Virus record (IMG/VR): IMGVR_UViG_3300042542_002528
Span: 1 to 62,086 of that record
Reading direction: 5' to 3' (one strand)
From: a virus
Lineage: Duplodnaviria > Caudoviricetes
Length of the DNA stretch: 62,086 bases
This document shows, piece by piece, positions 4,820 through 46,559 of this stretch. The notes under the pieces were generated by a model that did not search any database, was not told where the DNA came from, and was given only the letters and a program-made list of their open reading frames with translations. Made by a program: the position numbers and the translations under genes. Position 1 is the stretch's first letter. Every line of letters starts with the position of its first letter.

Positions 4820-5084
4820 CGCAACCATGCACCGCATCGCGCCGGTGCCGAATCTCAACGGCTCGCCTGCCCATTGTCTGATCGACCAGATGATGGAGGT
4901 TCACCGTGCCTTGGAGGCAGCGGCAGACTGCATACGGAAGTGGCAACCGCACTACAGGGACTACCAGATTAGCGGCGACTACCACGCCGACCGCGAAGAG
5001 TTCACGCGGCGGCTGCGGATGGTGGAGGAACTGGCGGCACAGTACGAGTCGGAGGCTTACACACTCTCAACACAGGAGCGATGA
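4812..5084 (+). CDS. Hypothetical early protein
   Basis: AGGAGG RBS; 90 aa. Confidence 0.75.
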   Translation: MSSATMHRIAPVPNLNGSPAHCLIDQMMEVHRALEAAADCIRKWQPHYRDYQISGDYHADREEFTRRLRMVEELAAQYESEAYTLSTQER

Positions 5085-5810
5085 ATGAACGGTCTGATTG
5101 TCCATGCCGGCGGCAAGCTGGCAGGTCTGGATGAGATTCGCGATCTCCCCGTGCCTGAGTCCACGGACACATGGTGTCCCGTGCCTCACCATCGGATGAT
5201 CGAACTGGTGACGCAGACGCTCGCGTCTACCGGGCTGGCAGTCACGGAGCAGTCCTTCGCCATCGCAAAGGATGGTGCCAGGATGTTCGGTGTCATCACG
5301 CTGGCCGGTGGCACGGACTATGCGACCACCATCGGGCTGCGGAACTCGCATGACAAGACCTTCCCCGCTGCCTTGGCACTGGGGTCACGGGTCTTCGTCT
5401 GCGACAACCTTGCGTTCAGCAGTGAGATCAAGATCAGCACCAAGCACACCCGCTATGTGCTGAATCGCCTGCCCAGACTGGTCGGTGACGGCATCGCCCA
5501 GCTAGTCCACAAGCGTGGCAAGCAGGACGAACGCATCGGCCTGTACAAGCAGACCGAGGTCCGGGGCATGCCGCATCTGCATGACCTCACGCTGCGAGCG
5601 TACCGGCAGAAGGCTATCCCTGCCCGTGCGATTGCCGAGGTGCTGGAGGAGTTTGAGGCACCGCGTCACCCGGAGTTTCGGGAGCCGACGCTGTGGAGTT
5701 TCTTCAACTGCGTCACCGAGGTGCTGAAGACCTACGGTGAACTGCAACCCCGGACGCAACGGTTGCACGGGGTGATCGATGCCGACTGCCCCCGCCTGCT
5801 GGCGGTATAG
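5085..5810 (+). CDS. DUF932-family protein
   Basis: GLRNSHDKT...G-RVFVCDNLAF and HT motifs; TLWSFFNCVTE C-terminal motif. Confidence 0.85.
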   Translation: MNGLIVHAGGKLAGLDEIRDLPVPESTDTWCPVPHHRMIELVTQTLASTGLAVTEQSFAIAKDGARMFGVITLAGGTDYATTIGLRNSHDKTFPAALALGSRVFVCDNLAFSSEIKISTKHTRYVLNRLPRLVGDGIAQLVHKRGKQDERIGLYKQTEVRGMPHLHDLTLRAYRQKAIPARAIAEVLEEFEAPRHPEFREPTLWSFFNCVTEVLKTYGELQPRTQRLHGVIDADCPRLLAV

Positions 5811-5821
5811 GAGGTGATGCG

Positions 5822-6058
5822 ATGAGCAAGATCGACAAGGCCGGTTCGCTCAAGCAGTGGGCGCGCGAGCGGTGTGAGGCGTGGAACTGGAACTGCAACG
5901 TCGCGGAGATCGCTCGGGAATTGATCGACGCAGACGTTCGTTCTGACGGGGTTCGATTTGAGGTTTTGAAGAAGGTGTTTCTGGAGTATTTCCAACGGCC
6001 AGAGGCTGAGTCCCACATCGAAATCATCGGCCAGATCATCGATGAGTTCGGTGACTGA
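5822..6058 (+). CDS. Hypothetical early protein
   Basis: AGGAGGT RBS. Confidence 0.7.
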   Translation: MSKIDKAGSLKQWARERCEAWNWNCNVAEIARELIDADVRSDGVRFEVLKKVFLEYFQRPEAESHIEIIGQIIDEFGD

Positions 6059-10029: not shown

Positions 10030-10442
10030 CAGACAGCGAGATCATGCAGGACTTCTTCGACACGTTCGTTGTGATGAACAAGCTCAACAGCGTGGTCAAC
10101 GTGAACGACTTCCTGGCTGGGCGGCTGGGTCTGCTGGAGTACGGGCCGCAGGCAGATGCCGATCCGCGGCATGTGCTGTCCTGCATCAAACGGATCGACG
10201 CGGGCATCGGCGTTCGGCTAATGCAGTCCTTCGTCACGCTGGAGCATTGCGCTCCTGGCGAGGGGCTGGACAATGTGTGGGCACACTGGTGTCCGTGCCC
10301 CAAGGGTGTTGACCTGCACAAGGCCGACTGCCCGGCAGGCACCATCCCCCTCTGGTCGAACGGCAAGGACACCGTGTTCTGCCGGGTGACGCCGGACAAG
10401 GGGAGCAGCTACCAGATCGACTACGGAATTCACACAGCGTAA
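10026..10442 (+). CDS. Hypothetical early protein
   Basis: GTGA overlap, GGAGG RBS. Confidence 0.7.
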   Translation: MTDSEIMQDFFDTFVVMNKLNSVVNVNDFLAGRLGLLEYGPQADADPRHVLSCIKRIDAGIGVRLMQSFVTLEHCAPGEGLDNVWAHWCPCPKGVDLHKADCPAGTIPLWSNGKDTVFCRVTPDKGSSYQIDYGIHTA

Positions 10443-10645
10443 GGAGGTTCCCATGTGCAAGGATGCACTACAAGCGTTGCATGTTCTCGCCACCGCCATC
10501 CTGGTCTTGTTGGCCGGGCAATTGAAAGAGGTGGCATTGCAGATTCTTACGGAGGTGACAAATGGGCGGTGAGTTCCTGGACTTTCTGTGCGGAGCGTCG
10601 ATTGTGCTTGCGGTGTTGTGGTTCTCTGCTTCACGGGGGTGACCT

Positions 10646-11437
10646 ATGATCTACGGCTACGCTCGCGTGTCGACCGACAGGCAGGAGAACTCTGCCGACG
10701 CGCAGTCCGCTCGGCTTGTCGCCTACTGCGAGCAGTCCGGCCTGCCGTTCGGTGGCCTGTACGTGGACCAGGATCAGAGTGCCTACCGCATCCCGCTCAA
10801 TCGCAGGCGGGAGGGGAAGAAGTTGTGCGATGCCCTGCAGCAAGGCGACACCCTGGTCTTCACCAAGATCGACCGCGTCTTCAGGTCGTTGCAGGATCAG
10901 TGCAACACGCTGGCAAGGTGGGAATCACTGGGCGTGCAGGTCATCATCCTGGACATGCCGCTGCAGTACTCCGATCCGATGGGGCGCTGCACACTATCGG
11001 TCGGCGGCGCGTTCGCTCAGCTTTCGTCTGAGCTGACGGGCCAACGCATCCGTGAGGTCAACGCCCACCTGCGCCAGACTGGCAGGCCCTACTCCACCTC
11101 CAGACCGTTCGGTTGGGTGGTCAAGGACAAGGAGTACGTGCCGTGCGAGGCGGAGCGTGCGCTTGGCCGGCGTGCCTTGGAGATGAACGACCGCGGCGTC
11201 ACGCCGGCAGCTATCGCCTTGGCTTTCGTAAAGGAGGGGGTTGAGAAACCTCGCAAGATTCGGGGAAGGGCGGCGTGGTACAACGTCTCCGATATGTATT
11301 TTCTGATCCGTTCGGCGAGAGCCGGATTCCCAAAGCTGCCGCAACGGATGCCGCAAGGCGCCTGGAACGACGCGATGCAACGCGCAGTGGAATCTGGTGG
11401 TTCTCCGCCACCCAGTGAAGTGTCCGCCCGTGGATGA
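10646..11437 (+). CDS. Serine recombinase (resolvase/invertase catalytic domain with C-terminal extension)
   Basis: MIYGYARVSTDRQ catalytic Ser motif; KIDRVFRS motif; PFGW. Confidence 0.93.
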   Translation: MIYGYARVSTDRQENSADAQSARLVAYCEQSGLPFGGLYVDQDQSAYRIPLNRRREGKKLCDALQQGDTLVFTKIDRVFRSLQDQCNTLARWESLGVQVIILDMPLQYSDPMGRCTLSVGGAFAQLSSELTGQRIREVNAHLRQTGRPYSTSRPFGWVVKDKEYVPCEAERALGRRALEMNDRGVTPAAIALAFVKEGVEKPRKIRGRAAWYNVSDMYFLIRSARAGFPKLPQRMPQGAWNDAMQRAVESGGSPPPSEVSARG

Positions 11438-11834
11438 AGCGGTCGGTGGCGAGCGCCCTGTCTTCTTCGGGCAGCTCTGAGATAGCCAGACGCAGGTGGT
11501 CCAGCTCGTCAAACTCTGGCAGCACATCGGCCGCCTCTTCCAAGCTGATCTTCTCCACGCCCGGCGTGCGCGTCAGCTTCTTGATCAGCTTGTACATCCC
11601 GTTCAAGCAGGCCCGTGCGAAGTATGCACGGGGGTAAGGCAGACGCTTGGGGTCGTAGGTGTCTGCCGCTTTTACTAGGGCGAGGTAGCCCTCTGCCTCC
11701 AGGTCTTGGACGTACAGTTGCTTCTGCCAGCCGGGCCGGTTCTGAACGAAAAACTTGGCCAGCATGGAGGCCAAGGGCATGTGTTCAACTATCCAAGTCT
11801 GGCGCTTTTTTGAGCGCTTGTATCGCTTCTTCAT
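11211..11834 (-). CDS. Sigma-70 family RNA polymerase sigma factor (regions 2 and 4, FliA/SigF-like)
   Basis: DLEAEGYLALVKAADTYDP (region 2); AISELPEEDR...GRTLHWVA (region 4 HTH). Confidence 0.88.
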   Translation of the reverse strand: MKKRYKRSKKRQTWIVEHMPLASMLAKFFVQNRPGWQKQLYVQDLEAEGYLALVKAADTYDPKRLPYPRAYFARACLNGMYKLIKKLTRTPGVEKISLEEAADVLPEFDELDHLRLAISELPEEDRALATDRFIHGRTLHWVAENHQIPLRVASRRSRRLAASVAAALGIRLSPNGSENTYRRRCTTPPFPESCEVSQPPPLRKPRR

Positions 11835-12012
11835 GCAGGTCTAGCCGTTCCTCATGCTCCGCCAAGGTCGCGCGGAGTTCCTCAAACATTTCCGGGAGCG
11901 TCTCCACGCTGTTGGCTATCACGGCCACCTTGGCATGGAGAGAAAACGCCCACGGAATTACGGCTGCAGCCACGGATATTCCCAGCATCCACAGCTCTGT
12001 CTCTGGACTCAT
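11785..12012 (-). CDS. Small membrane protein with coiled coil (holin/spanin-like architecture)
   Basis: Hydrophobic LWMLGISVAAAVIPWAFSL followed by heptad-rich charged tail. Confidence 0.65.
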   Translation of the reverse strand: MSPETELWMLGISVAAAVIPWAFSLHAKVAVIANSVETLPEMFEELRATLAEHEERLDLHEEAIQALKKAPDLDS

Positions 12013-12296
12013 AGACCCCTCGCAATCGCAACCAACATCAGCGCCGCATACGGATGCAGCGCGCCCTCTTCGCAGTGGACCTTGATCATCTGCACTGCAC
12101 GGTCCTCTTCTCCCACCGGGTACTGGTACACATGCGTGTGCCCGTCGTACTTCGCGCTCAGTCTAATGCGTTCAACGCTTCGGCTTTCATCGCTGCCAGT
12201 GTTGAAGCAGGCTCTTTGAAAATCCATCTTGCCAGCCAGTTGCTGATGAGTGAGATGAGCAGGGGCAGTACGAAGATCAGGAACACGCTGCCGCAT
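12009..12296 (-). CDS. Hypothetical protein (true start probably downstream)
   Basis: ATGA coupling to next gene; fills gap. Confidence 0.5.
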   Translation of the reverse strand: MRQRVPDLRTAPAHLTHQQLAGKMDFQRACFNTGSDESRSVERIRLSAKYDGHTHVYQYPVGEEDRAVQMIKVHCEEGALHPYAALMLVAIARGL

Positions 12297-12460
12297 TCGG
12301 GGTGGCGCGTCTTGTAATTGGTGGCGATCTGCTTACGCCACTTCCTTTTGTCTGGCGTGGCGCAGGCGATTGCGATCAGCACCACCTCGCCGGCCTTGCC
12401 GGACAGCGTGCCCGCTCCTGTGTCCTGCAGGCAGCGGTCAGCTACGTCCCGTGCTGTCAT
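12158..12460 (-). CDS. Small membrane protein
   Basis: TM segment VFLIFVLPLLISLISNWLA; ATGA coupling. Confidence 0.7.
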   Translation of the reverse strand: MTARDVADRCLQDTGAGTLSGKAGEVVLIAIACATPDKRKWRKQIATNYKTRHPECGSVFLIFVLPLLISLISNWLARWIFKEPASTLAAMKAEALNALD

Positions 12461-12705
12461 CGAATCCTCATCGGCGGGTGGAGCAGGGCCTTGTACTTCT
12501 TGCAGTCACAGGTGTCGGGGCAGGGGCAGTCGGTCACATGCCCATCGCCGTGAATGATCTTGCCGCCCACGCACTTGGGCTTGCCTGAGCAGCAGCCGGT
12601 GGGCGTGTCTTCCTTACGGGTGACGATGACCACGGCCGCTTCAGCGGCGACCCGTTCCTGGTAGGTGGGCGGTGCGATCAGTAGCCAGAGGAGGAGGTGT
12701 GTCAT
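12457..12705 (-). CDS. Small exported or anchored Cys-rich protein
   Basis: N-terminal hydrophobic stretch; CC...C...GDG...CPC...CDC. Confidence 0.7.
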   Translation of the reverse strand: MTHLLLWLLIAPPTYQERVAAEAAVVIVTRKEDTPTGCCSGKPKCVGGKIIHGDGHVTDCPCPDTCDCKKYKALLHPPMRIR

Positions 12706-13634
12706 TTCGATAGCAGTCCTATTGCGCCCAGGTCAGGGAGTCTCTGAGGGGGGAACCCTTCGACGTTGCCGTACGCCCAGCAGTCACCGTCCTCCACGCA
12801 CACGGCCCAGTCTTCGGCGCGCGTGATGATCATGCCGGGCACAGGCGGCGGGTAGTCGTCGGGCCAGTCCTTCGGCAGTTGGTTCCATGCGCCCCAGCTA
12901 TTCGCCATGAAGAACACAGTGAACGGCCAGAAGGTCTTGGTGTCGTCGTACCCAACCGTCGCAAGGTCATGCGCCCATCCGCCCGGGGCACGGTTGTGGT
13001 AGTGCTGCTTGTTTGGGGACGCAGACCACTTCGCGTACTGCCCTGAGTGGATGCCGTACCCATTGGCGAGGCAGTCCATCGCATCCCTGACGGTGGTGAG
13101 CTGCCGGATGATTCCGACCTTGGTCTGCTTGCACTCGTCCAAGATTTCTTGCGGGATGCCGGCCGATCCCCACCTGTCACCAAGTGAGCCGTCGTACTTC
13201 GACAGGTCGTACTTACCTACCTTCTTCCGCAGCATGTAGCCGTGGTCGCGTTCAAACATGGAAGCGCGGGCCGGGATCATGCCCGCACCGCCGTTGCCAC
13301 GCGCGCCGTACGTAGGCTCGGTCGCACTGCGAGAGACGAAGCTCTTGTGTTCGCCGGCCACCATGATGGCGGTGGCTCGCGTGCAATCACGGGCATTGCG
13401 GCTACCGTGGGACACACAGTCGGAAGTCGTTTGCACCTCAGTGAACGACAGCGGGTCCAGCGCTCGGGCGTACGCCCAGAGGCACGCCTTCTTGCCCTCG
13501 CTGGAGTTGGCGCTGTTCGGCTCGGCGTACACCGGGCGGGGCTGACTCTCTTGCCACAGCACCCTGTCGCGGGCGGAATCAATCCAGCCCTGCAGCCCGT
13601 CGTCGTATGCCTGGAGAGGGGAGAAGTCAGCCAC
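12702..13634 (-). CDS. Papain-like (clan CA, C1-type) cysteine peptidase
   Basis: Q-TTSD-C-VSHG (oxyanion Gln, catalytic Cys), WAH...VGYDD (His), NSWG (Asn). Confidence 0.88.
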   Translation of the reverse strand: MADFSPLQAYDDGLQGWIDSARDRVLWQESQPRPVYAEPNSANSSEGKKACLWAYARALDPLSFTEVQTTSDCVSHGSRNARDCTRATAIMVAGEHKSFVSRSATEPTYGARGNGGAGMIPARASMFERDHGYMLRKKVGKYDLSKYDGSLGDRWGSAGIPQEILDECKQTKVGIIRQLTTVRDAMDCLANGYGIHSGQYAKWSASPNKQHYHNRAPGGWAHDLATVGYDDTKTFWPFTVFFMANSWGAWNQLPKDWPDDYPPPVPGMIITRAEDWAVCVEDGDCWAYGNVEGFPPQRLPDLGAIGLLSK

Positions 13635-14016
13635 CTTGCTTCGCCACCTCCCGGCACCCGGCGATCACATCGTCCAGAGTCTCACCCTTCAGGGCGACAT
13701 CCTCTGGCGCAACGTGTTCGCCCAGCACCTTCTCCACCGCCACATCCAGGCCAGGGTACTTGCCCTTCATCTCACCCACCGCAAGACGCAAGGTGGCGGA
13801 ATGAACGTCCCGCCACACTGCCAGCGTGGTGATCTGCTTGCCGCCGTCACGCTCAGTCACATCAGCGAGCGCGGTGTAGATGCCGGACAGCTTGGCCTTG
13901 TCTGCCTTGGTGGCGGTTGCCATGGCTTGGGCTACTGGGCCTGTGGCCTGCGGCCGGGCCGGCAGGAAGCCGATGACAACCAGCACCAGGGCGATGGCTA
14001 CTGGGAGATGCTTCAT
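13627..14016 (-). CDS. Signal-anchored or secreted helical protein
   Basis: MKHLPVAIALVLVVIGFL signal-like N-terminus; ATGA coupling. Confidence 0.72.
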   Translation of the reverse strand: MKHLPVAIALVLVVIGFLPARPQATGPVAQAMATATKADKAKLSGIYTALADVTERDGGKQITTLAVWRDVHSATLRLAVGEMKGKYPGLDVAVEKVLGEHVAPEDVALKGETLDDVIAGCREVAKQGG

Positions 14017-14234
14017 CCCTGCACCTTCAACAGTGCAGCAAGCAAGGCGTTGCACGCCGCTCGCACTGCCTCGTCCTGGTATCGATCTCGGACGGCGACC
14101 ACCGCCTCCACGGAGGAGAGGATGGTGTCGGGCTTGGCGCTGCGCCATTTGATCTTGCCGACGAGGGAGCTTCCGTACACACCAGCGATGGCAAGGGCCA
14201 ACGCGCACAACGACAGAATCTGATAAGTCGTCAC
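14013..14234 (-). CDS. Small membrane protein (73 aa)
   Basis: GTGA overlap with the S8 stop; TM ILSLCALALAIAGVYG. Confidence 0.68.
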   Translation of the reverse strand: MTTYQILSLCALALAIAGVYGSSLVGKIKWRSAKPDTILSSVEAVVAVRDRYQDEAVRAACNALLAALLKVQG

Positions 14235-15178
14235 AGGATTTTCGCTCCGGGAATAAAGATCGTCACGCCGTCTCGGGATGCGGTCACGCTGTAGAAGTTC
14301 ACCAACTTGTGCGGGTCTAGTAGCCCCCACCCGTACAGCGTGTCCTTGCCTGGGTCACCAACATCCCTGCACGTTTTCTCCAGCGCCTGCGTCACGGCGC
14401 TGTGATCGACCCTCTTCCCCTCTCGCTTCGCCGCTGACACGTACAGCGCGAGCGTCCCTGCAACGAACGGCGCGGCCATGCTGGTGCCGCTCACCGTTGC
14501 GTATCCCTGATTCAGCCATGTGCTTGTGATGCCCTCGCCCGGTGCGGCAACGGCGATCTCCTTGCCGCGGGAGGAGAACTGGCAGGCGTTGCCCGCCTTA
14601 TCCACCGCACCCACGCCAATCGTTTCCTTGTATGCGGCCGGGTAGTTCACCGACCCGCCGTCGTTCCCGGCGGCGCAGACGACGATGATGCCCGCGGCAT
14701 GTGCATCGCGAATCGCCTCATGCACGCGGTCGTCCGGGAGCGTTGAGCCAAGGGACATGCAGCAGATGTCGGCCTTGGCTTCGACTGCGTGCCGCACTGC
14801 AGTCGCCACTGCGTCGTTGCTACCCATGCCGCTGTGGCCCAGCACCTTGAGCGACAGAAGGCGAGCCGCGGGAGCGATCCCTTTCGACAGGCCAGACCTC
14901 GCGGCAATGATGCCGGCCACATGCGTGCCGTGCCCGACCGTGTCCACCACATCGGAGTCGGAGCTGAAGTTTCTCCAGTCCGCCACCGCGTCGATCAAAG
15001 CGCCGTGCTTGCTGATCCCGGTGTCGATCACCGCCACCGTCACGCCCTCGCCCTTGGTCTGCGACCAGAGCTGCGGTATGCCGTACGACTGCACGCCCCA
15101 GTCGACACCCTCAGAGAGAGAGTGCGGGACGTTGGCGAGGTCTACCCGGTAGGGCGGGAGATGAACGTAGCCGCTCAC
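14231..15178 (-). CDS. Subtilisin-family (S8) serine peptidase
   Basis: VAVIDTG (Asp), HGTHVAG (His), AAGN (oxyanion), GTSMAAP (Ser), YGWG. Confidence 0.97.
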   Translation of the reverse strand: MSGYVHLPPYRVDLANVPHSLSEGVDWGVQSYGIPQLWSQTKGEGVTVAVIDTGISKHGALIDAVADWRNFSSDSDVVDTVGHGTHVAGIIAARSGLSKGIAPAARLLSLKVLGHSGMGSNDAVATAVRHAVEAKADICCMSLGSTLPDDRVHEAIRDAHAAGIIVVCAAGNDGGSVNYPAAYKETIGVGAVDKAGNACQFSSRGKEIAVAAPGEGITSTWLNQGYATVSGTSMAAPFVAGTLALYVSAAKREGKRVDHSAVTQALEKTCRDVGDPGKDTLYGWGLLDPHKLVNFYSVTASRDGVTIFIPGAKIL

Positions 15179-15543
15179 TTCGCCTTATCCGAGATGGACT
15201 GCAGGATGCTGATCACCAGCGGCAGGATGACATCGCACAGCAGCTTCCAATCGACGTTGATCGCCAGCGCGTGGGCCTCAGTCTCCGCCCGCTCCTTGGG
15301 GTCCGGGAAGCTCATGGTGGACACGCCGCCGCGGTCGTCGTAAACGATGCTGTATGTGTCACACAGCATCTTCGGGTTGGTCACCGTGGTTTCGATGACC
15401 GGCATCAGGACGCGGGCGATGGAGTCAACAATCGCCCACTTCTCTGAGTAGGTCGCGTCGTTCTTCCAGCTCTTGGCGATCTCAACTACCTTGAGCAGCG
15501 CCGTCTGGTTGGCAAGCAGCCACTGAATCAGCTTGAGATTCAT
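15175..15543 (-). CDS. Hypothetical protein with C-terminal hydrophobic helix
   Basis: LLCDVILPLVISILQSI; GGAG RBS; coupled to S8. Confidence 0.68.
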   Translation of the reverse strand: MNLKLIQWLLANQTALLKVVEIAKSWKNDATYSEKWAIVDSIARVLMPVIETTVTNPKMLCDTYSIVYDDRGGVSTMSFPDPKERAETEAHALAINVDWKLLCDVILPLVISILQSISDKAK

Positions 15544-15985
15544 CTTCATCTTCTCCAAATACGTGGGCATGGCAGGCGATTCCGACCACGGCGTGGCCGG
15601 CGATGTCGAAGAGTGTCTCGTCAATAGCTATTGTCCGATCCGTGAACATCAGCGAGCGGAGCCGGCGGCACTTCTCCCCGATCCTGGCGAGCTGGTAGAC
15701 CCACGGTTCGATGCCCTCTTCCGCCACGCCCAGTGCGTTTTCCAAGGGGTTCTGACCACAGCCGTAGTAGCCCCGCTTCCTGGACAGCAGCCGCCACAGC
15801 CGGACGCAGATGCCCCAGTAAGGATCGTCCGCCAGAAGGGCGTCCAGCTCACCAAGCAACCTCTCGGCTTGCCTTTGTGATTCGTCCGTACTCGGACCAG
15901 AAGGAGGGGTGGTGCCAGGGGTCTTCGGCTGTGTCGTCGGCGTCACAAAGGAAAGCAGTCCGTGCATGCGCCCACTCCTCCACAA
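15482..15985 (-). CDS. Nucleotide-modification-associated (Nmad1/DUF1599-like, all-helical NTP-PPase-like) protein; start uncertain
   Basis: RK...YG...NPLEN...RIGEK..RL...IDETLFDIAGHAVV pattern. Confidence 0.7.
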   Translation of the reverse strand: MWRSGRMHGLLSFVTPTTQPKTPGTTPPSGPSTDESQRQAERLLGELDALLADDPYWGICVRLWRLLSRKRGYYGCGQNPLENALGVAEEGIEPWVYQLARIGEKCRRLRSLMFTDRTIAIDETLFDIAGHAVVGIACHAHVFGEDEDESQADSVAACQPDGAAQGS

Positions 15986-16193
15986 AGGTGTCGATGATCA
16001 GGTTTCGTTCTAGGGAATCCAAGAGACAGATGATGCCGGTATCGTTGTCGTCGTCGTAGAGGAAGTACCCAAGGTGGTCACCCATCTTCTCCCGCGGGCG
16101 GAGGTACACCCGTAGCGGGAACGTCACCGGCCAGCGGTTCTCCGCCCACCGCTTCAGCTTCTTCACCAAGCAGCGCCGCCAATCGCTTGGCAT
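15849..16193 (-). CDS. Small zincin-like protein with variant EEWAH motif
   Basis: G...I...DTFVEEWAHA...HHPSFW..Y resembles SprT/ImmA-type minimal metallopeptidases. Confidence 0.6.
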   Translation of the reverse strand: MPSDWRRCLVKKLKRWAENRWPVTFPLRVYLRPREKMGDHLGYFLYDDDNDTGIICLLDSLERNLIIDTFVEEWAHARTAFLCDADDTAEDPWHHPSFWSEYGRITKASREVAW

Positions 16194-16476
16194 CGGAGAG
16201 CCTCACCATCAGGAGCCAGGGCTTGTCGTTCCTTCGGTGCAGTACCACCGGGCACTGGCCGCCGGCATCGCGGACGGCCTGCTCCACCCAGTCGTAGGGG
16301 TTGCCACGCTCGCACCGCTTCACCTCTAGGTGAATGTCGGGCGTGGAGGTGACGACATCCGGGCTATCGTTTCCCCCGGCAAATTGCTGGCCCCGCCGTG
16401 CCGACCCGCCGACGAACTCCATCCACGCCTTGGCTGCCTCCAGCTCACCACGCTTGCCCTTAGACCGTGAGTTCAT
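16078..16476 (-). CDS. Holliday junction resolvase (PD-(D/E)xK, Hjc-like)
   Basis: MNSRSKGKRGELE...RRGQQFAGG..SPDV...HLEVKR. Confidence 0.88.
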   Translation of the reverse strand: MNSRSKGKRGELEAAKAWMEFVGGSARRGQQFAGGNDSPDVVTSTPDIHLEVKRCERGNPYDWVEQAVRDAGGQCPVVLHRRNDKPWLLMVRLSDAKRLAALLGEEAEAVGGEPLAGDVPATGVPPPAGEDG

Positions 16477-16736
16477 CGGGTGGCCCTCGCGACGGGGCCG
16501 TTGGCATGGCGGTCATCCACAGCCACCACATCCGGGAACTCGGACATGATCTCCCGCACAGCGTCTGATGCGGTGAGCTTGTTCAGGACCTTCTCGTTAC
16601 GGCCGATCCACGTAGCAATCTGGTTGCCGTATGCGTGGTCCCGCTTGTCGCCCAGCGTGTTCCAGAACACGGTGAGGTTGTGGTTCACCGTACGCTGGCT
16701 GATGCCCGATTGGATCATGGGTTCCGTGCGCTCCAT
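16473..16736 (-). CDS. Hypothetical protein
   Basis: ORF coupled to the resolvase. Confidence 0.6.
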   Translation of the reverse strand: MERTEPMIQSGISQRTVNHNLTVFWNTLGDKRDHAYGNQIATWIGRNEKVLNKLTASDAVREIMSEFPDVVAVDDRHANGPVARATR

Positions 16737-17113
16737 GTCTTCGTATTCCTCAGACGTTCTTCGGCGTAGTACTCAGGCAACGGCTCGGGGTCGTAGCCCA
16801 AGTGTTTCTTGTGTTTGAGGGAGGCTAGGAATGAAGGGTCGTAGTTGTCGGGGTCACACTCCTGCTTCACGCCAAGGAGTATACCTTTGTTCAGGTCCGG
16901 CTGCTTGGCATACACCTTGCCGCTGTGGTACACGCCGTGGCATCGCTCGCACAACCGGAGGTACTGTCGGATGTCATGCTTGCGACCGGCGCCGCCGACG
17001 AGGTGATGTACCTCTAGGCCACGGCGACCGTCCGACTCAGGCCACCAGCACACAGCACAGCAGCGATGGAGCTGGACCCACTCCAAGAGGGCGGAGCGTT
17101 CAGCAAAGTTCAA
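16715..17113 (-). CDS. HNH-fold nuclease-like protein
   Basis: CAVC...EVHH...LCERCH...H. Confidence 0.75.
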   Translation of the reverse strand: MNFAERSALLEWVQLHRCCAVCWWPESDGRRGLEVHHLVGGAGRKHDIRQYLRLCERCHGVYHSGKVYAKQPDLNKGILLGVKQECDPDNYDPSFLASLKHKKHLGYDPEPLPEYYAEERLRNTKTWSARNP

Positions 17114-17631
17114 GCACGGCCTCCGCTATCTGCGGAACTGGCAAGCTCCAAACACTCTGGCAATCCTGGGTGCAAGTCGCTCGGCGTTATCACCAGCATG
17201 CTGCCGTATCCGTAGTTGCATTGATTTGCCGCACGCACCTCGGCCTGGGTAGCCCATCCAACAATGCGACCTCGCCTGCGCGGCATGTCCACGGCAACCA
17301 GAATGTAGTAGTCGGCCCAGAACTTTGAGTCAGGCCGCTGCTTTAGGTGTGGGTCATGCGCGTATTGCGTTGCGCGTACCTCAAAACGATTGCCGGCATG
17401 ACAGAAATCACGGCCAGCATCGCCGCCTGCCCTGAGAGTTAGGTCCATCGGCAACCCGGTGACCAGTTCAACCACCCTTTCGCCAAGCAACCCCAGGAAA
17501 TGCGTGGAATGCGCACTCCAATTGCGAGTTGATGCGTAGTACTTTTTCTGGGTGTCTCTTTCGGCTGCTCTTTCGGTTAAGAAATCCCAGCACTCGCGCA
17601 AGCAATGCCATGCCGTCGCTTCGACTCTCAC
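17110..17631 (-). CDS. PD-(D/E)xK restriction-like nuclease family protein
   Basis: GLLGE...GDAGRDF...FEVRAT...DYYILV..D...IVGW; lower GC than neighbours. Confidence 0.65.
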   Translation of the reverse strand: MRVEATAWHCLRECWDFLTERAAERDTQKKYYASTRNWSAHSTHFLGLLGERVVELVTGLPMDLTLRAGGDAGRDFCHAGNRFEVRATQYAHDPHLKQRPDSKFWADYYILVAVDMPRRRGRIVGWATQAEVRAANQCNYGYGSMLVITPSDLHPGLPECLELASSADSGGRA

Positions 17632-39266: not shown

Positions 39267-42200
39267 TCAGGAGTTCGCCGTTCTACTAACGTAAGCCCAC
39301 TGGCCAGCGCGGATCGGGTCCGAGAAATCGCGGGACACTGCTGCGCGCACCCGAATCCAGTAATTCGCCGTCCCGCTCGCCAAACCGCCGGGAGACGGTA
39401 AGGTCGGGAATGTCACTCCTTGGGTGTACGGCCCACTACCATAGGTGGCGACAGAATGCTCCACGGTAGACGACCACGTTGTCGGAACATCAGTGCCGAT
39501 TATCCATGCGGTCTGCAGCTCGTAAGCGGTGATTGCTCTGCCGCCGTCGTACAACGAGCCAACCCAAGAGGCGGTGGACACCCAGCCAGCCCCTAAAGTC
39601 ACGGGCGTCATCGCCAAAGATCGCACCGCGCCGGGTTCGGTGGGCTTAGATTTCGCGACCGACGGTGCGGACAACACGCCTGCAACGCTGGCCAGAGAGC
39701 GGTAGTACCGCAGCCCGGCCGGCTGGCTCGTCGCCGTATATGCCCTCCCCTGCGCGTCGTCCGCGGTCGGCGTGTCGGCCAGCGTCGTCCACGTAACCTG
39801 ATCGGGGCTGGACTGCCATCGATAGAAGGCGATGGTCTGCCATTCGATTCCGGCGGGATGTTCTGCTCGCAGTTTCACGGTGCCGTCGCTGCTGGCCTGC
39901 ACGCCCGTCGACGAGCCGTTTGGCTCAACTACCTGCCAGCCTGGGGCGGGGAGTGCCGCCGGAAGCGTGTACGGAGCAGATGCCGTGACTCCCAATGCGT
40001 TGCGCGCGCGGATCACAATCGTCGCGGCGTTATTGGTTTGTCGCACCAAGTCGTACTGCAGGCCCAGCCCGGCGTTGTATTCAGTAGTGGTCACCCCGGC
40101 GCCAGAATAGAGGACCGTGTACTGAGTAATCACCGAGCCTCCCGTGCTGGACGGCGCCGTCCAGAAGATGCGCACCTTGCCGCCTGGGAGTTCCGTGGAG
40201 GTGATTGTCGGGGCGAAGACCGGCGCGGAGAACGTCACGGTTTCGCGCAAAGAAGACGACCACACGCTTGTCCGAGACACGCCCCCCGCGCTAGCCGTCG
40301 CCTGCGCCCGCCCCAGGACCACACGCGAAGCTGTCGAAGCGTACGGTATGGTGCAAAGAAACTTCGCGCTGCCGCCTTCAGTGCCGCTCAGCATCGGAGT
40401 GGCGGCCTGCCATGTCACGCCCAAGTCCAAGCTGAATTGCCCCGTGTAAGCGATGGACGACATGCCAGCAGGCAAAGCGGAGTACGCGATGAACTGCAAC
40501 TCGCCGCCTGTGCTACGGAACAAAGTCAGAGTTGGCGCGGCAGGCGCGGTCGGAACTGCGGCAGTCACCGTCACGGAGTTGGAGACGGGCGACAAGCCGG
40601 CGGTAGTTTGTGCATATACCGTATACGTGGCCGTGCCGGGGAGCTGCGTGATCGTAGACGCAGTGGTGCTAGAGGCCGCGAATTCAACGCCGTCCTTGTA
40701 GATGACGTACCGCGTCAGCGCCAGTCCTCCAAGCGACGAAGGCTCTGTCCAAGACAGGCTGACCGTAGCCCTGTCGGCCAAGACGTACGCAATAGAAAAC
40801 GACAGGTTTCTGGGAGCCGTCGCCGCCTGGAACGGCGTGACTCTACCATCCACAAACGCATTCCCGAAGAAGGTATTCGCAAACACCCGCACCAGCACTG
40901 TCGTTCCGTTTTGCAGGCCGGTCACCGTGGCGATGCGAGCCGCCGCTGGAAGCTCCGGTGAAAACACGCCCGGCGGCGCGTAGTACACGGAGTATCTCAA
41001 GATCGGGCCGGTGCCGCTGGTTTCCGGGGCGTCCCAGGTTGCCGTGAAGCCGCCGTCCGTGGGCGTCAGCACAAGGTTCTGCGGGGCGGATGGCGGGACG
41101 GCCGGAGCAGCGGGGACGGTGAACGTCACCGACGCCGACGATCCCGAACCTGCGGCAGTGACCGCAGATATGGTGTAGGTGTACGAGGCACCGGAGACGT
41201 ATGGCTGGCCGGACATTGGAACCATGGTCCTGGAGGTGGCGTTGCCTGCCACCTGCTCGCCGTAGCCGACGCCGTACGTCAGTAGGTACGCGGTGACTTG
41301 CTGCCCATACAGGCTGGCAGGGGGGGACCAAGACAGAGCCACCTGCGTGTTGGTCGGCGTAGCCGTGAAATTAAGCGGGGCAGACGGGGCGAGGCCAATG
41401 CCGACATTCGCCCGCATCGCATTGCTACTGCCCACCGCGTTGATGGCGTACACCGACACCCACACAGTTGTTCCCGCCGCCAGCCCCGTGGCCGTGTACG
41501 CGCGCGTCAGGCCGGTGTAGACCTGCGTTTCTTGGCCCGTGAATGAGTTCGATAGCGTCATTCTGTACGAAGTGATGGCAGACCCGCCCGTGCTAGCCGG
41601 CGCATCCCATGTCGCCGAGAAGCCGTCAGCCGTCCTTGTCAGCACAAGGTTTGTGGGCGAGGACGGGGCGGTATTCGCAGACGCCGCCAGTGTCGTCACA
41701 TCAATCGAAGCGACTTGGCCGCCGCCGTTGGCGTTGCTGGCGTATACGCCAAACGTGTAGCGGGTGTTGGCAGTGAGGTCAGAGACTGTGCCCGTGAGGC
41801 CGGAGGCGGATTGCACCGTCCAAGGCCCCTGAGACGAGGTGCCGTAGCGGATGCTGTAGCCCGTCACCGCAGAGCCGCCGTTATTGGCCGGGGCGCCCCA
41901 AGACAGCGTTACGGATGTGGTGGTGGCGATGCCGGACAGGTTCTGCGGCTGGCTGGGCGTGGAGGTGGCGCCAACGATGCTGACCGAATTGCTCGCGGTG
42001 CTGTACTGGCCTGTCCCATACGATGTGATCGCGGCTACGCGGAACACGTAGTCTGTGTTGGCAAGCAGCCCTGACACAGAGGATTGGCTGACTACGCCAG
42101 TGGTCACCGCTGCAGCCCACGTAAGCCCGCGATCCGACGAACGCTGCACGCTATAGCCAGTAATCGGGGAGCCGCCGTCGTCGGAAGGCGTGTACCACGC

Positions 42201-42845
42201 AACAGTGGCCGTGTTGGCGGCGGCGGCAGTAGCCGTCACCACAGCCGGCGGCGAGGCTGGTCGAACGGCTGGAGCGCTGGGCGACACCGGCCCGAAGGAG
42301 GCGCTGTAGTCCCCAGTCCCCGATGCGTTATTGGCGGACGCGCGAATGCGATAGGCCGTGCCGTTGACCAGCCCGGTGATGGTGTACGAGGTCGCTGTGG
42401 ATGATCCGGCGCCGGTCCACGTTGTTCCGTTGTCCGTGCTGACCTGGAACGAGTATCCCGTGATGGCCGAGCCGCCAGTGTCCGTTGGCGCCGTGACCGA
42501 GACGGCGATGGTGGTGTTGCCGGGCAGCGCCGCTGCGATGACGGGCGCCCCGGGGGGCGAGGTGGTGGTGACAGCGCCTGCGGCCACCACCGACGAATAG
42601 ATGTTGCCTTGCGCGTCTTGGTAGACGATGTGTTCTGCCGACCCGTGCTGGTAGCGGAACGCACGCACAATAGAAGTTGTGGCCGTGCTGGGCACAGGAA
42701 GCGTCACGGGCGTCATTCCAGGCCGCACCGTCAACTGCCCGGGAATCAGGCACTGCAGGTTGACCTGCTCCACTGCAGCGCCCGGAGGGATCGCATACTG
42801 GGAAGCGTTGGTGACAAGCCCTGCCCACTTGTTGATCGGGATCAC
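39267..42845 (-). CDS. Fibronectin type III repeat virion protein (1192 aa)
   Basis: Roughly 8-10 FN3 units (W.AP...GGS.IT.Y...GL..GT.Y..RV.A.N..G). Confidence 0.9.
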   Translation of the reverse strand: MIPINKWAGLVTNASQYAIPPGAAVEQVNLQCLIPGQLTVRPGMTPVTLPVPSTATTSIVRAFRYQHGSAEHIVYQDAQGNIYSSVVAAGAVTTTSPPGAPVIAAALPGNTTIAVSVTAPTDTGGSAITGYSFQVSTDNGTTWTGAGSSTATSYTITGLVNGTAYRIRASANNASGTGDYSASFGPVSPSAPAVRPASPPAVVTATAAAANTATVAWYTPSDDGGSPITGYSVQRSSDRGLTWAAAVTTGVVSQSSVSGLLANTDYVFRVAAITSYGTGQYSTASNSVSIVGATSTPSQPQNLSGIATTTSVTLSWGAPANNGGSAVTGYSIRYGTSSQGPWTVQSASGLTGTVSDLTANTRYTFGVYASNANGGGQVASIDVTTLAASANTAPSSPTNLVLTRTADGFSATWDAPASTGGSAITSYRMTLSNSFTGQETQVYTGLTRAYTATGLAAGTTVWVSVYAINAVGSSNAMRANVGIGLAPSAPLNFTATPTNTQVALSWSPPASLYGQQVTAYLLTYGVGYGEQVAGNATSRTMVPMSGQPYVSGASYTYTISAVTAAGSGSSASVTFTVPAAPAVPPSAPQNLVLTPTDGGFTATWDAPETSGTGPILRYSVYYAPPGVFSPELPAAARIATVTGLQNGTTVLVRVFANTFFGNAFVDGRVTPFQAATAPRNLSFSIAYVLADRATVSLSWTEPSSLGGLALTRYVIYKDGVEFAASSTTASTITQLPGTATYTVYAQTTAGLSPVSNSVTVTAAVPTAPAAPTLTLFRSTGGELQFIAYSALPAGMSSIAYTGQFSLDLGVTWQAATPMLSGTEGGSAKFLCTIPYASTASRVVLGRAQATASAGGVSRTSVWSSSLRETVTFSAPVFAPTITSTELPGGKVRIFWTAPSSTGGSVITQYTVLYSGAGVTTTEYNAGLGLQYDLVRQTNNAATIVIRARNALGVTASAPYTLPAALPAPGWQVVEPNGSSTGVQASSDGTVKLRAEHPAGIEWQTIAFYRWQSSPDQVTWTTLADTPTADDAQGRAYTATSQPAGLRYYRSLASVAGVLSAPSVAKSKPTEPGAVRSLAMTPVTLGAGWVSTASWVGSLYDGGRAITAYELQTAWIIGTDVPTTWSSTVEHSVATYGSGPYTQGVTFPTLPSPGGLASGTANYWIRVRAAVSRDFSDPIRAGQWAYVSRTANS

Positions 42846-44095
42846 GGACGACCCCCGTCAAAGTTGTCACTCTGGAGCGGCGTCCGCCAGCCGCTCGTAT
42901 CCCAGATCACCCTCTGCGTCCCGGCGTACGGAGCGAGCTGGTCGCCCTCCATCGCAAGCCGTAAGTCTCTCTGATACAGGGCGTAGGCGTTCTCAGGCTT
43001 GGTCCCGCGCATGCGAGCGAGCCAGTACTCCGCGCAGCTCAGGAGCGCGTTGTGCATGGAGTCCGGCATGTCCAAGATGTCAGTCACCACGTACTTCACG
43101 TTGGTGGCGTACGCCTCGCTCGCCAGCGTTGCAGAGGTGGCGCTAGCGACCGCGACAATACGGGACTCCGACTCGTACGGGTGCATGGACCCCAGCGAGT
43201 CCGGCAGGTCGTCCTGCGTGCCGAACCGAATCACCGACCCGACCATCGACTGCGTGAAGAAGGTGCCAGTTCCCGTCAGCGTCAGGCCGGATGCCGTCAC
43301 GGTGCCGGCCCGGGACGAGTCCTCATGGCCTGAGATGCGAAGCCCTCTCGGCAGACGCCGGTAGGTGAAGTCCAGAGTCTCCACGGTGATCGGATACCCG
43401 ATGACCTTCACCGCCCAGCCGGAAGAGTAGGGGTCTTTGATGACCGTCCACGCATTCGGAGGCCCCTGCAGGTCGACGGTCGATTCGATCTTCATCGCCA
43501 TGTCGGGTTCGACAAACGTGAAGTACGTCCACTTGTTCTGGTCCATCGGCGTGTCGATGTTGCGGAAGTCCGCCGGCAATCGATACAGCGACTGGTACAG
43601 GAGCGCCGACTTTGGGGTCAGCAGATCGGTCGGGAACTTCACCACCGGGTCCGCAAGCAGTGTGTTGCCGTCTAGTCTCTTTGCGATACGGACGACGACG
43701 TTGTTGACACGCAGGCTGCAATTGGCGGAGTGCAGGGGGAAGGTGTCGCCCGTGACACGGGTGAACAGGCGCGTCTCTTCGTCGTACGTGACCGTCCCCT
43801 CCCAGCGGGCGTTGAAGACGATACGGCCGTGGGTGTTGTAGTACCGCCAGTCTTTGATGGTGGAGACTTCGCGGTACGCCCGCTGGAGGGCGGTGCGGAT
43901 GTCCTTCTGCTCAGCGTCTTGGGGGCCGCCGAACGACGCAGAGATCAGATGCTCCACGGCGTCGAAGTACGTCAGGAACTGGCGCGTCGATGTCTGAAAC
44001 CCGCCGTCGTCCGTAAAGAACGAGGTGACGAGATTGCTCCCATCGGAGCCGTCGATGTAGTCGCCGTTGTGCGTCAGCAGCGCGCCGTAGCTCAT
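42842..44095 (-). CDS. Head-tail adaptor / tail tubular protein A-like
   Basis: ALQRAYREV...W, Y.LPADF, ...YP......FTYRR.P, ALL..AEY..A pattern; upstream of nozzle-like genes. Confidence 0.65.
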   Translation of the reverse strand: MSYGALLTHNGDYIDGSDGSNLVTSFFTDDGGFQTSTRQFLTYFDAVEHLISASFGGPQDAEQKDIRTALQRAYREVSTIKDWRYYNTHGRIVFNARWEGTVTYDEETRLFTRVTGDTFPLHSANCSLRVNNVVVRIAKRLDGNTLLADPVVKFPTDLLTPKSALLYQSLYRLPADFRNIDTPMDQNKWTYFTFVEPDMAMKIESTVDLQGPPNAWTVIKDPYSSGWAVKVIGYPITVETLDFTYRRLPRGLRISGHEDSSRAGTVTASGLTLTGTGTFFTQSMVGSVIRFGTQDDLPDSLGSMHPYESESRIVAVASATSATLASEAYATNVKYVVTDILDMPDSMHNALLSCAEYWLARMRGTKPENAYALYQRDLRLAMEGDQLAPYAGTQRVIWDTSGWRTPLQSDNFDGGRP

Positions 44096-44107
44096 GCGTC
44101 CCCCGGG

Positions 44108-44209
44108 TTACGAGCCGTACACCACGCTGGTGCCGAGATAGATTTTGGTCACGGTGCTATCGCCCAGCTTGATGGCAGACACCGCGGTATCGCCAAGGTT
44201 TGCAGCCAT
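44108..44209 (-). CDS. Small tail-fibre-associated peptide (33 aa; IKLG...VTKIYLG..VVY)
   Basis: Hand translation; motif usually follows fibre genes ending TQAQYDA...TLY. Confidence 0.6.
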   Translation of the reverse strand: MAANLGDTAVSAIKLGDSTVTKIYLGTSVVYGS

Positions 44210-44212
44210 TGC

Positions 44213-45052
44213 TCACCCGACAATGAGGTACAGGGTAGTGGCGCTCTTGGTGGAGATGGCGTCGTACTGCGCCTGCGTCACTTTCACCACGTTGGTGATC
44301 GCCACCGCCCCGGCGATGCCAGTGATCACGCTGCCCACCTTGGCGTCCAGGGAGGACTGCAGATTGGTCACCTGCGAGATAGCCAGCGTCACGGCATCTG
44401 CCCCGCCGCTTGCATGCGAGGCCGCGTGGCTAGTGGGCGTGCGGGAATCCGACAGACGAGCATCGTCGCCTTGGCAGATAGTGCCGCCCGTGGAACCAAA
44501 CGCCCCCGTGGTCAGGACGCCGGAGGTGGTGGTAACCACAGGGAGGCCAGAGGTGGTGCCGATGGCGCCGGCGTTAGTGATGTTGCCGTGGGCGTGTTCG
44601 GCCGCAGCGGCACCAATCTCAGAATAGGTGATCGCGTCCGACCCGCCCGTAGCGTGGCTGGCGGCGTGAGCTGTGGGAGTCCTAGACCCCGTGATGCGGG
44701 CGTCGTCGCCTTGGCAGAACGTGCCGGATGTGGTGCCAAAGGCCCCCACCGTGACTGACCCGCCGGCCCCGGTCACTAAGGGCAAGCCGGATGTAGAACC
44801 GACCTTGCCGTCTGCCGAGATGCCGCCGTGGGCATGGTCTGCCGCGGCTGCGCCGATAGCGGACGGGCTGATGGGATCGGCCCCAGCACTTCCATGAGAG
44901 GCGGCGTGCGTGGCCGGGATGCCACCACCCAAGGCCGCAATGGACGCCAAGGTTACAGAGTTGGTGGCCGTCCCGGCCGTGTTCATCACGGGGACGACAG
45001 AAGTGCCCACCGCTGCGGCGAGGGGCAAATCCTTGATTTTGACATCGGGCAT
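44213..45052 (-). CDS. Tail fibre protein with 80-aa (240-bp) internal tandem duplication
   Basis: HAASH/HAHG repeats; TCGTCGCCTTGGCAGA at 44463 and 44703; C-terminal TQAQYDAISTKSATTLYLIV. Confidence 0.8.
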   Translation of the reverse strand: MPDVKIKDLPLAAAVGTSVVPVMNTAGTATNSVTLASIAALGGGIPATHAASHGSAGADPISPSAIGAAAADHAHGGISADGKVGSTSGLPLVTGAGGSVTVGAFGTTSGTFCQGDDARITGSRTPTAHAASHATGGSDAITYSEIGAAAAEHAHGNITNAGAIGTTSGLPVVTTTSGVLTTGAFGSTGGTICQGDDARLSDSRTPTSHAASHASGGADAVTLAISQVTNLQSSLDAKVGSVITGIAGAVAITNVVKVTQAQYDAISTKSATTLYLIVG

Positions 45053-45083
45053 GAGGACCTCCGGGGCTACTGGTAAGTGTCCG

Positions 45084-45383
45084 TTACAGGCCCGCAGCCT
45101 CCCGGAAAGCCTGTTCGTACTGAGCTTGGCTCAACTCCTCAACTGCGTCTGACGCAATGGCATCAGCCAGCATCGCAGCCGGCAGGTCGTAGCCGCAGTA
45201 GGCTGACTCCACGGCGATATAGACCCGGCCATCCAAGCCACGCGGAGCTTGATCTGCTGGCGGAATGGCTGTCTCAGTCAGTGTTTCGGCGCTGGGATAG
45301 CCGTATGCGGCATCAAGCGCACGTCGAAAAGCCTCATACACATCCGCGGACGAACGAAAGTATCTCACGCTGCCGTACCCCAC
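45084..45383 (-). CDS. Putative tail-fibre chaperone or hypothetical protein
   Basis: Follows lectin-like fibre gene. Confidence 0.6.
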   Translation of the reverse strand: MGYGSVRYFRSSADVYEAFRRALDAAYGYPSAETLTETAIPPADQAPRGLDGRVYIAVESAYCGYDLPAAMLADAIASDAVEELSQAQYEQAFREAAGL

Positions 45384-46551: not shown

Positions 46552-46559
46552 TACTGCTC

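Follow-up and report, generated by a model that had tools for sequence, protein, structure and literature searches.

The closest described counterparts of the locus reported here are the holin–endolysin(–spanin) cassettes of the lambda S-R-Rz/Rz1 type, together with signal-arrest-release (SAR) endolysins such as P1 Lyz. The locus is a run of nine minus-strand open reading frames (ORFs) at positions 11785–15543 of a viral genome, labeled A, S8, C, D, C1, F, G, H and I; S8 encodes a subtilase and C1 a predicted papain-fold peptidase. The window, that is, the whole stretch of DNA analyzed, is the entire IMG/VR record IMGVR_UViG_3300042542_002528: a linear sequence of 62,086 bp rated 100% by CheckV, and so as near to complete as a first-pass annotation of the sequence had held. 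We judge the chance to be somewhat better than even that the run is a lysis cassette in which the lytic enzyme belongs to a new family of C1A-fold peptidases with two dedicated partners, D and F. In broader terms the module is very probably a lytic or otherwise envelope-acting one, and the evidence supports the view that a papain-fold peptidase occupies the place where an endolysin would be expected.

The likenesses to known lysis cassettes are three. As in lambda-type cassettes, a hydrolase lacking a signal peptide is coupled with small membrane proteins, one of which has similarity to a holin family; as with canonical and SAR endolysins, the C1 family has both soluble and membrane-anchored versions; and the C1 module, like lysis cassettes, moves as a unit between genome positions. 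Unlike the enzymes of those cassettes, C1 is not a glycosidase, an amidase, or an M15, M23, CHAP or NlpC peptidase. It has two dedicated partners, there is no clear spanin pair, and in one clade a second protease is present.

Papain-family domains in endolysins have a precedent: the N5 domain of mycobacteriophage LysA, according to PMC6116114, ‘matches several cysteine proteases of the papain family’. PMC10318531 reviews the CHAP and NlpC lysins. Like the CHAP, NlpC/P60 and LysA N5 domains, which phages use on wall peptides, C1 is a predicted clan-CA cysteine peptidase; unlike the CHAP and NlpC enzymes it has the full C1A two-domain fold and stands alone, with no wall-binding domain. The literature on phage endolysins, papain-like and cysteine proteases, subtilisin lysis cassettes and Planctomycetota phages yielded no description of such a cassette, most subscription journals being outside the coverage of the search.

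C1 is predicted to be a papain-fold cysteine peptidase

C1 could not be named from sequence searches: no Pfam family matched at E≤0.1 (PF00112, Peptidase_C1, included), there was no PHROG match, and no PDB sequence matched at E≤10. The AlphaFold2 (AF2) model of the protein (pLDDT 84.1) has the whole two-domain fold of the papain family. Its top match in Foldseek is Xylellain (E 9e-9), followed by cathepsins; 121 PDB entries matched at E≤1e-3, and all among the matches listed were of the papain family. Structure comparison with VIA placed the model at Z 21.1 from Xylellain (3ois), with a root-mean-square deviation of 2.8 over 230 residues, and at Z 17–20 from many C1A enzymes, 325 chains reaching Z≥8. 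Residues Q68, C73, H222 and N245-S246-W247 are unchanged in all 24 aligned homologues, and the order of these residues, taken with the fold, suggests that they correspond to the catalytic residues of papain. In Kyte-Doolittle (KD) scans with 19-residue windows, which were used for hydrophobic segments throughout, C1 reaches a maximum of only 0.51 and has no signal peptide. These results agree with the first-pass annotation, which had recognized a signal-less, papain-like C1 peptidase with a complete Q/C/H/N set, and we regard C1 as a cysteine peptidase of papain (C1A) fold with predicted activity.

The features shared with described C1A peptidases (Xylellain, the pro-forms of cathepsins B, L and K, and papain) are the two-domain fold, the Q-C-H-N-S-W order and the alignment of a pro-region. 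In contrast to them C1 is phage-borne, lacks a signal peptide, has D and F as partners, is interrupted in some relatives by inteins at catalytic residues, and is only 10–17% identical. In the VIA alignments mature C1A enzymes begin at model residue ∼44–46 and pro-forms at residues 1–4, so that the conserved N-terminus of C1 (∼45 residues) sits at the place of a pro-region; by analogy these residues may inhibit the enzyme.

One search returned 238 close homologues of C1, and an exhaustive search at E≤1e-3 returned 1305 representatives at 50% identity: a large family without a name in Pfam or PHROG. Cultured phages (INPHARED, searched by tblastn) gave no match at E≤1e-3. The 57 longer homologues (P0121–P0177) owe all of their additional length to insertions, and 55 of them carry intein or LAGLIDADG Pfam domains. 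The site of interruption lies directly before C73 in 46 cases, after H222 in seven and at both positions in two; it is unclear in the remaining two. It is well established that important genes retain inteins at their conserved catalytic sites. By that analogy, the homing of selfish elements to the catalytic codons of C1 suggests that the gene is conserved and important.

Three minor observations concern the same gene. Loci with an intein-interrupted C1 include L023, L050, L065 and L071. A Cys-rich ORF of ∼217 codons lies between D and C1 at 5331–5984 of locus L008 and, judged by spacing, in L007, L009, L010 and L012–L019; by eye only, it resembles an endonuclease-VII/HNH homing enzyme. Among BFVD entries matched by the C1 model were one named ‘Peptidoglycan binding-like’ (rank 12) and one named ‘N acetylmuramidase (Fragment)’ (rank 5); we note these names as a lead and make no use of them as support.

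Known wall-hydrolase families were not detected in the window

Pfam searches of 83 distinct window ORFs (10 + 39 + 34) gave no peptidoglycan-hydrolase family at E≤0.01. A six-frame search of the window with nine common families (PF00959, PF01464, PF01510, PF01520, PF05257, PF01551, PF00877, PF13539 and PF01183) returned no match even at E≤1, while control genomes gave matches in the same search. Comparison of the 39 non-structural ORFs with PHROGs matched 25 families, none of them a lysis family, and for the 34 structural-region ORFs no lysis family was present among the 25 of 67 matched families listed. The claim that the genome holds no recognizable endolysin is thus upheld for Pfam across the 83 ORFs and for the nine families in six frames. 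Three host genomes bearing the module had no match to PF00959, PF01464, PF01520 or PF13539 genome-wide; a single PF01510 match was found in them, on a contig other than that of the prophage.

C1 is accompanied by D, F and G across distant loci

To place the run among its relatives we compared 74 viral and 14 genome loci, scoring the presence of each gene by tblastn and limiting counts to loci with enough room to contain it. A close clade of 66 loci, in which C1 is at least 49% identical, is fully syntenic from an HNH gene to a serine recombinase. In a distant clade C1 is 25–46% identical and the gene order is as follows: a small soluble protein (A2), a transmembrane (TM) protein, a signal-anchored protein (D2), C1, a Cys-rich lipoprotein (F2), a tail-anchored TM protein (G2) and a TM–coiled-coil protein. 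Profile comparison with hhalign links D to D2 (99.6%, E 1.2e-23) and F to F2 (99.9%, E 1.4e-33), and weakly links G to G2 (55%, E 1.2e-4). Homology of A, C and I to their distant-clade analogues was considered and rejected: there is no profile similarity (≤0.4%), and these proteins are alike by architecture only.

The distant-clade module occupies two different sites, one between a capsid-protease fusion gene (phrog_4523, E 5.6e-86) and head-tail genes, the other between a primase and a ParB-methylase. A third backbone is provided by a prophage at ∼189–226 kb of a 351-kb contig (G386:C22; L097–L099), which is collinear with the structural genes of the window (portal 31% identical, E 3e-82; terminase 30%; five further proteins). 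Genes for two signal-peptide proteins flank its C1-like gene (24% identity, E 8e-11), which adjoins the recombinase. Furthermore, the D-C1-F-G core recurs without S8 in prophages within Planctomycetota chromosomes.

Together these comparisons point to D-C1-F-G as the conserved core, rather than to the two proteases, and to C1 as the sole enzyme that always accompanies the membrane proteins. The first-pass annotation had suggested, as a check, the co-occurrence of S8, C1 and TM genes with endolysin absence across related phages; joint occurrence of the genes holds for C1 with D, F and G but fails for S8, which is found in none of the 14 distant-clade loci.

Gene fusions tie D and F to the peptidase. 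Among the best 150 of the 1305 C1 representatives, seven have a D-like N-terminal domain, five an F-like tail and two have both. In each of the seven D-C1 fusions the D-like domain lies behind a hydrophobic N-terminus (KD 1.89–2.99), and an alignment of nine fused N-termini matches D at 97.6–98.3%, against ≤0.7% for four control families. One fused gene, in a 48.5-kb viral contig, lies directly behind a gene for a protein with two TM segments; the protein encoded downstream on this contig has an N-terminal hydrophobic segment with, by eye, a lipoprotein signal. Given the signal anchor of D, the lipoprotein signals of F homologues and the fusions, the simplest reading is that D, C1 and F work jointly outside the cytoplasmic membrane. 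Some of the D-C1(-F) fusions (P0221, P0242, P0266 and P0272) have an extra tail of ∼100 residues with a CxxC motif, thioredoxin-like by eye and by a simple pattern.

The membrane and partner proteins

Single hydrophobic segments are found in A, C, D, G and I and none in S8, C1, F or H. The segment of D (KD 2.08) precedes a domain modeled by AF2 with pLDDT 94.2. D is present in all 64 close-clade loci; in a protein atlas its best feature matches were unnamed clusters at 0.85, and its structural TM-score was at most 0.40.

F had been called an exported Cys-rich protein. The Cys-rich character is plain; export is not evident from the protein's own sequence, the N-terminus being weakly hydrophobic (maximum 0.77), and is suggested instead by its homology to distant proteins with lipoprotein-type signals. 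F2, the distant-clade homologue, has such a signal at its start, is ∼190 residues long and contains a coiled coil. The L085 homologue of F gave no usable match in the protein atlas. F matches were obtained in 46 of 64 close-clade loci and G matches in 45 of 63, the shortfall in both reflecting tblastn misses of short proteins.

Of the remaining membrane proteins, I is the best holin candidate of the run and may be a holin- or XhlA-like protein. It is present in all 60 close-clade loci, and when both clades are pooled 37 of 60 family members match phrog_1296 ‘holin’ (best E 1.5e-6), 17 match phrog_1193 ‘hemolysin’ (XhlA-like) and two match Rz-like PHROGs; such names are annotation labels in PHROG and do not test function. 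G (segment KD 2.34) is a candidate holin-type component, four of 47 members (3 + 1) matching two unnamed PHROG families. C, present in 54 of 64 close-clade loci, is a candidate holin or antiholin partner. A (56 of 58 loci; segment borderline at KD 1.71) and H (47 of 61) are conserved in the close clade only, and membership of A in the module is uncertain. Neither Pfam nor PHROG gave a match for A, C or H. Prediction of a complex of C1, D (residues 24–129) and F (residues 17–82) scored 0.05 against a mark of 0.32 in a run without controls, which is evidence neither way.

S8 is a clade-specific subtilase of intracellular type

The subtilase identification itself is secure. PF00082 matches S8 over profile positions 1–288 of 288 (E 3.8e-54; 184.4 bits against a cut-off of 21.8) and is its sole Pfam match, there being no I9 pro-domain; phrog_3677 ‘protease’ matches at E 6.7e-76. 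The motifs DTG (at 52), HGTH (83), AAGN (169, with N172) and GTSMA (231, with S233) align to the same motifs in structures of intracellular subtilisin proteases (ISPs). No 19-residue window attains a hydropathy of 1.5 (maximum 1.34) and there is no signal peptide, so that an S8 subtilisin with complete D/H/S triad and no signal peptide, as first annotated, is indeed what the gene encodes.

The best PDB matches are ISPs of Bacillus and Planococcus (7y6m, E 4.6e-52, then 7xr8, 6f9m and 2x8j), and the alignment to 7y6m begins at residue 1 of S8. According to PMC6220982, ISPs have a short N-terminal pro-peptide whose LIPY/F motif, [LVI]-[IFLV]-P-[YFH], blocks the active site. S8 has LPPY at residues 7–10, kept in 46 of 47 distinct orthologue N-termini; the second position (P) falls outside the pattern as published there. 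S8 thus shares with ISPs the alignment of the pro-peptide and the lack of a signal peptide and I9 domain, and differs from them in its LPPY motif and in being phage-encoded and inserted in a cassette of membrane-protein genes. On this evidence we class it as an ISP-type (intracellular) subtilase.

All 61 close-clade loci with room carry S8, and none of the 14 true distant-clade loci does; the latter count leaves out L072, a truncated close-clade locus which, if filed as distant, would make it one of 15. Two whole host genomes carrying the C1 module contained no S8 at E≤1e-20. The distribution marks S8 as a clade-specific insertion between A and C, fixed in one clade and outside the conserved core. 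Among cultured phages, 85 records contain a homologue (≤44% identity; at least 80% of the query covered in 50), with no annotation beyond ‘protease’. In the two inspected records, a Tsamsa-like Bacillus phage and Moorella phage MTATph1, the gene lies among nucleotide and replication genes and not, as here, among those for membrane proteins. S8 may work inside the cell and merely be a neighbor of the module, it may activate C1, or it may be a genuine second protease of lysis; a role in lysis is the weakest part of the picture first drawn for this locus.

Hosts of the wider phage group lie among the Planctomycetota

Of the 14 genome loci, eight come from metagenome-assembled genomes (MAGs) named Pirellulaceae, Planctomycetaceae, Pirellulales or Thermoguttaceae, and two of these eight are on contigs of 0.9 and 5.5 Mb. 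The lineages of Pirellulaceae and Thermoguttaceae were checked and both belong to the order Pirellulales; the Planctomycetaceae we take to belong to the Planctomycetota as well. The genome with the collinear prophage (G386) was drawn from Planctomycetota genomes. By contrast, the five close-clade genome loci all lie on contigs of phage size, each binned to a different lineage (Pirellulaceae in one case), so that the host of the window phage itself can only be inferred. The Planctomycete host proposed at first is retained for the wider phage group, which is tied to the phylum via chromosomally integrated relatives, and is presumptive for this phage.

A DNA search of positions 42100–62086 (19,987 bases) against 401 Planctomycetota genomes gave no convincing CRISPR spacer. 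Matches were obtained in 75 of the 401 genomes, mostly short and at one spot (query ∼5058–5125), and only G386 led to a related prophage. The spot corresponds to window positions ∼47157–47224, inside an ORF at 46797–48251 (a tail gene with fn3 and a Gly-rich stretch), where ∼65 nt match dozens of the genomes at 74–100%; these matches probably reflect a common repeat or domain motif rather than CRISPR spacers.

Planctomycetes are stated in PMC4432640 to have peptidoglycan. The module-bearing host genomes encode Mur ligases in three of three cases and penicillin-binding protein (PBP) transpeptidases in two of three. Since these hosts make peptidoglycan, any phage that infects them must breach it, and given the PBPs and Mur ligases a ‘protein wall’ is no likelier a substrate than peptidoglycan peptides. 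C1 may then be no more than a peptidoglycan endopeptidase from a family not previously described; muropeptides and wall proteins are substrates between which sequence alone cannot discriminate. The wall-remodeling enzymes of these three genomes (G001, G386 and G003) seem unusual: no SLT, Amidase_3 or Phage_lysozyme match was found in them, despite Mur ligases in all and PBPs in two.

Interpretation

If the run is a lysis cassette, as we favor, C1, which lacks a signal peptide, would be synthesized in the cytoplasm and would probably be latent, given the position of its first ∼45 residues. It would reach the periplasm via lesions produced by holin-like small membrane proteins, for which I is the best candidate and C, G and A are possible partners. 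There, acting jointly with D and F, it would cut peptide bonds that hold the wall: most simply those of peptidoglycan stem peptides or cross-links, possibly those of wall proteins. In the clade with genomes of ∼60 kb, a second latent and signal-less protease, S8 with its LPPY motif, would have been inserted into the module, where its role may be to activate C1 or to make the attack on envelope proteins broader. The original proposal of a protease-based lysis cassette in place of an endolysin is kept in part: C1 very probably belongs to a lytic or envelope-acting module, and S8 is not among its core members.

A number of points weigh against this interpretation. Lysis, export and substrate are read from genomic context throughout. 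The relatives of S8 are intracellular enzymes, found among nucleotide and replication genes where their setting was inspected, and the cassette adjoins DNA-metabolism genes and a sigma factor rather than lying downstream of tail genes. To our knowledge C1A enzymes are hydrolases of proteins and peptides, not of peptidoglycan, and among C1 relatives no fusion to a peptidoglycan-binding domain was found: the 57 longer homologues hold inteins or no Pfam domain. The holin match of the window's own I protein is weak (phrog_1296, E 1.7e-4), and C, G and A give no informative family match. D is a compact helical bundle rather than an extended coiled coil of the kind seen in i-spanins, and its fold has no informative match (best Foldseek PDB E 2.5; best Z 6.4 in a wide VIA search, to generic helical bundles). 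A lipobox-like motif occurs in only four of 41 close-clade F sequences, so that the analogy to a spanin is weak in the window. Finally, a cryptic wall hydrolase is possible among the many unannotated ORFs, the PHROG view of the structural region covering 25 of 67 families.

That last possibility defines one rival explanation, namely that a conventional but unrecognized peptidoglycan hydrolase is encoded elsewhere and that the C1 module, with or without S8, is an accessory for outer layers (outer-membrane tethers, an S-layer or wall proteins), in effect a stand-in for a spanin. The lack of a recognizable spanin pair would fit, as would hosts that make peptidoglycan, the known action of C1A enzymes on proteins, and the large number of unannotated ORFs (for example, no family for 8 of 10, 6 of 10 and 8 of 10 large ORFs). 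Against this stand the empty six-frame and Pfam searches, the absence of four hydrolase families from the module-bearing host genomes, and the fact that C1 is the only enzyme of the conserved module; we think the explanation distinctly improbable. An alternative with a little more to recommend it, which we nonetheless consider unlikely, is that the proteases act inside the cell, in host take-over, in the destruction of defense or host proteins, or in the processing of phage proteins, with the membrane proteins being unrelated and serving, for instance, superinfection exclusion. Neither S8 nor C1 has a signal peptide, the best solved relatives of S8 are intracellular subtilisins, its cultured-phage homologues keep the company described above, and the genes preceding the cassette in the window are those of DNA metabolism, HNH and RusA-like ones among them. 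For S8 alone, an intracellular role is quite plausible. C1 is another matter: some relatives fuse it to a membrane-anchored D domain and a Cys-rich F motif, F homologues have lipoprotein signals, the C1 core accompanies membrane or exported proteins in three genome backbones, and the I family matches a holin PHROG.

Two further explanations were rejected. Phage proteases are most often maturation enzymes and no prohead protease was recognized in the window, so that S8, C1 or both might mature the capsid or virion. This we regard as very improbable: the two genes (12.7–15.2 kb) lie ∼35 kb from the portal (50183–52159), terminase and head genes (head protein 57752–58861) and are embedded among those for membrane proteins; they are of the S8 and papain folds, not of S78, S80, S49 or S77 type; D-C1 fusions have a membrane anchor; and distant-clade phages with the C1 module have a capsid-protease fusion of their own. 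The other was suggested by F, which is small, Cys-rich and adjoins two proteases. Lantibiotic systems employ subtilases and papain-like domains as leader peptidases, and the cassette could in principle mature and export F as a bacteriocin-like peptide or a ribosomally synthesized and post-translationally modified peptide (RiPP). However, no modification enzyme or transporter was found with Pfam or PHROG, some relatives have F joined to the C-terminal end of C1, in the distant clade F is a coiled-coil lipoprotein, and S8 is absent from that clade, which makes this explanation the most improbable of those considered.

Returning to the lysis cassette, a more specific version may be sketched, tentatively and with considerable doubt. 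In phages of Planctomycetota and their uncultured relatives, the endolysin may have been replaced by a complex of a C1A peptidase with D as membrane anchor and F as a Cys-rich, metal- or redox-active component, delivered via holin lesions or as a signal-anchored fusion; one clade would add an ISP-type subtilase, the outcome being proteolysis of a protein-rich, disulfide-linked wall layer. An attack on a wall cross-linked by cystines would be in keeping with the thioredoxin-like CxxC tails that some fused relatives show on inspection by eye.

Should C1 prove to be the lytic enzyme, it would represent a new catalytic class of phage lysins and the first concrete handle on phage exit from the Planctomycetota, a phylum whose envelope composition has long been disputed. 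Enzymes of this type could be used to probe whether the bonds that hold the wall are those of wall proteins or of peptidoglycan peptides. Two independent indications of the gene's importance are the D-C1-F fusions and the inteins at catalytic positions, and these make the hypothesis directly testable.

Gene layout and neighboring features

Details of the nine ORFs and of the gene that follows them are given in Table 1. Four-nucleotide overlaps of start and stop codons occur at six junctions (A/S8, S8/C, C/D, C1/F, F/G and H/I) and an 8-nt overlap at D/C1; the start of H is uncertain and its overlap with G may extend to 139 nt. The tight run of genes for TM proteins, an S8 protease, a C1-like peptidase and a Cys-rich protein is therefore as first described. 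The upstream genes (15482–17113) are packed just as tightly and coupling alone does not delimit the cassette. A scan of 10400–17400 for promoters and terminators gave counts at or below shuffle means, so that no operon boundaries can be drawn.

Table 1. Positions and main features of the ORFs of the run and of the adjoining sigma-70-like gene.
Gene	Length (aa)	Position	Strand	Features
A	122	15175..15543	-	C-terminal hydrophobic segment 93-111
S8	315	14231..15178	-	subtilase, ISP type; D52/H83/S233/N172; LPPY motif
C	73	14013..14234	-	N-terminal TM segment 6-24
D	129	13627..14016	-	signal-anchored, TM 4-22; compact helical bundle
C1	310	12702..13634	-	predicted papain-fold (C1A-like) cysteine peptidase; Q68/C73/H222/N245
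F	82	12457..12705	-	Cys-rich; conserved HGDGH-containing Cys motif
G	100	12158..12460	-	TM segment 59-77
H	up to 95	12009..12296	-	small soluble ORF
I	75	11785..12012	-	N-terminal TM segment 7-25 and coiled coil
sigma-70-like factor		11211..11780	-	last gene of the minus-strand run; a neighbor rather than an established member of the module

The sigma-70-like neighbor is present in all 58 close-clade loci with room. Its domain matches (Sigma70_r2, E 9e-5; r4, E 1e-3) are both under the Pfam cut-offs, and PHROG sigma families match at E 4.7e-4 to 4.3e-3. Beyond it, a serine recombinase (Resolvase, E 5.7e-29) at 10646–11437 (+) adjoins the cassette, and within the set of ORFs at 163–25922 there are PHROG integrase matches (phrog_95, E 5e-37; phrog_1, E 3e-17) as well as a weak match to Phage_integrase. 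Given the recombinase and integrase matches the phage looks temperate. No tRNA gene was found in the window, and there is consequently no lead to an att site; the genome collection yielded no integrated close-clade copy.

A few matches elsewhere in the window deserve mention. For the ORF at 60161–61006, the N-terminus resembles ART-PolyVal (ADP-ribosyltransferase of polyvalent proteins) below threshold, with E 2.2e-6 and 28.9 bits where the cut-off is 31.2. In the structural region (25912–61965) one ORF matches Mtd_N, the N-terminal domain of the major tropism determinant (E 1.3e-11), and another matches DUF6321 (E 2.3e-21).

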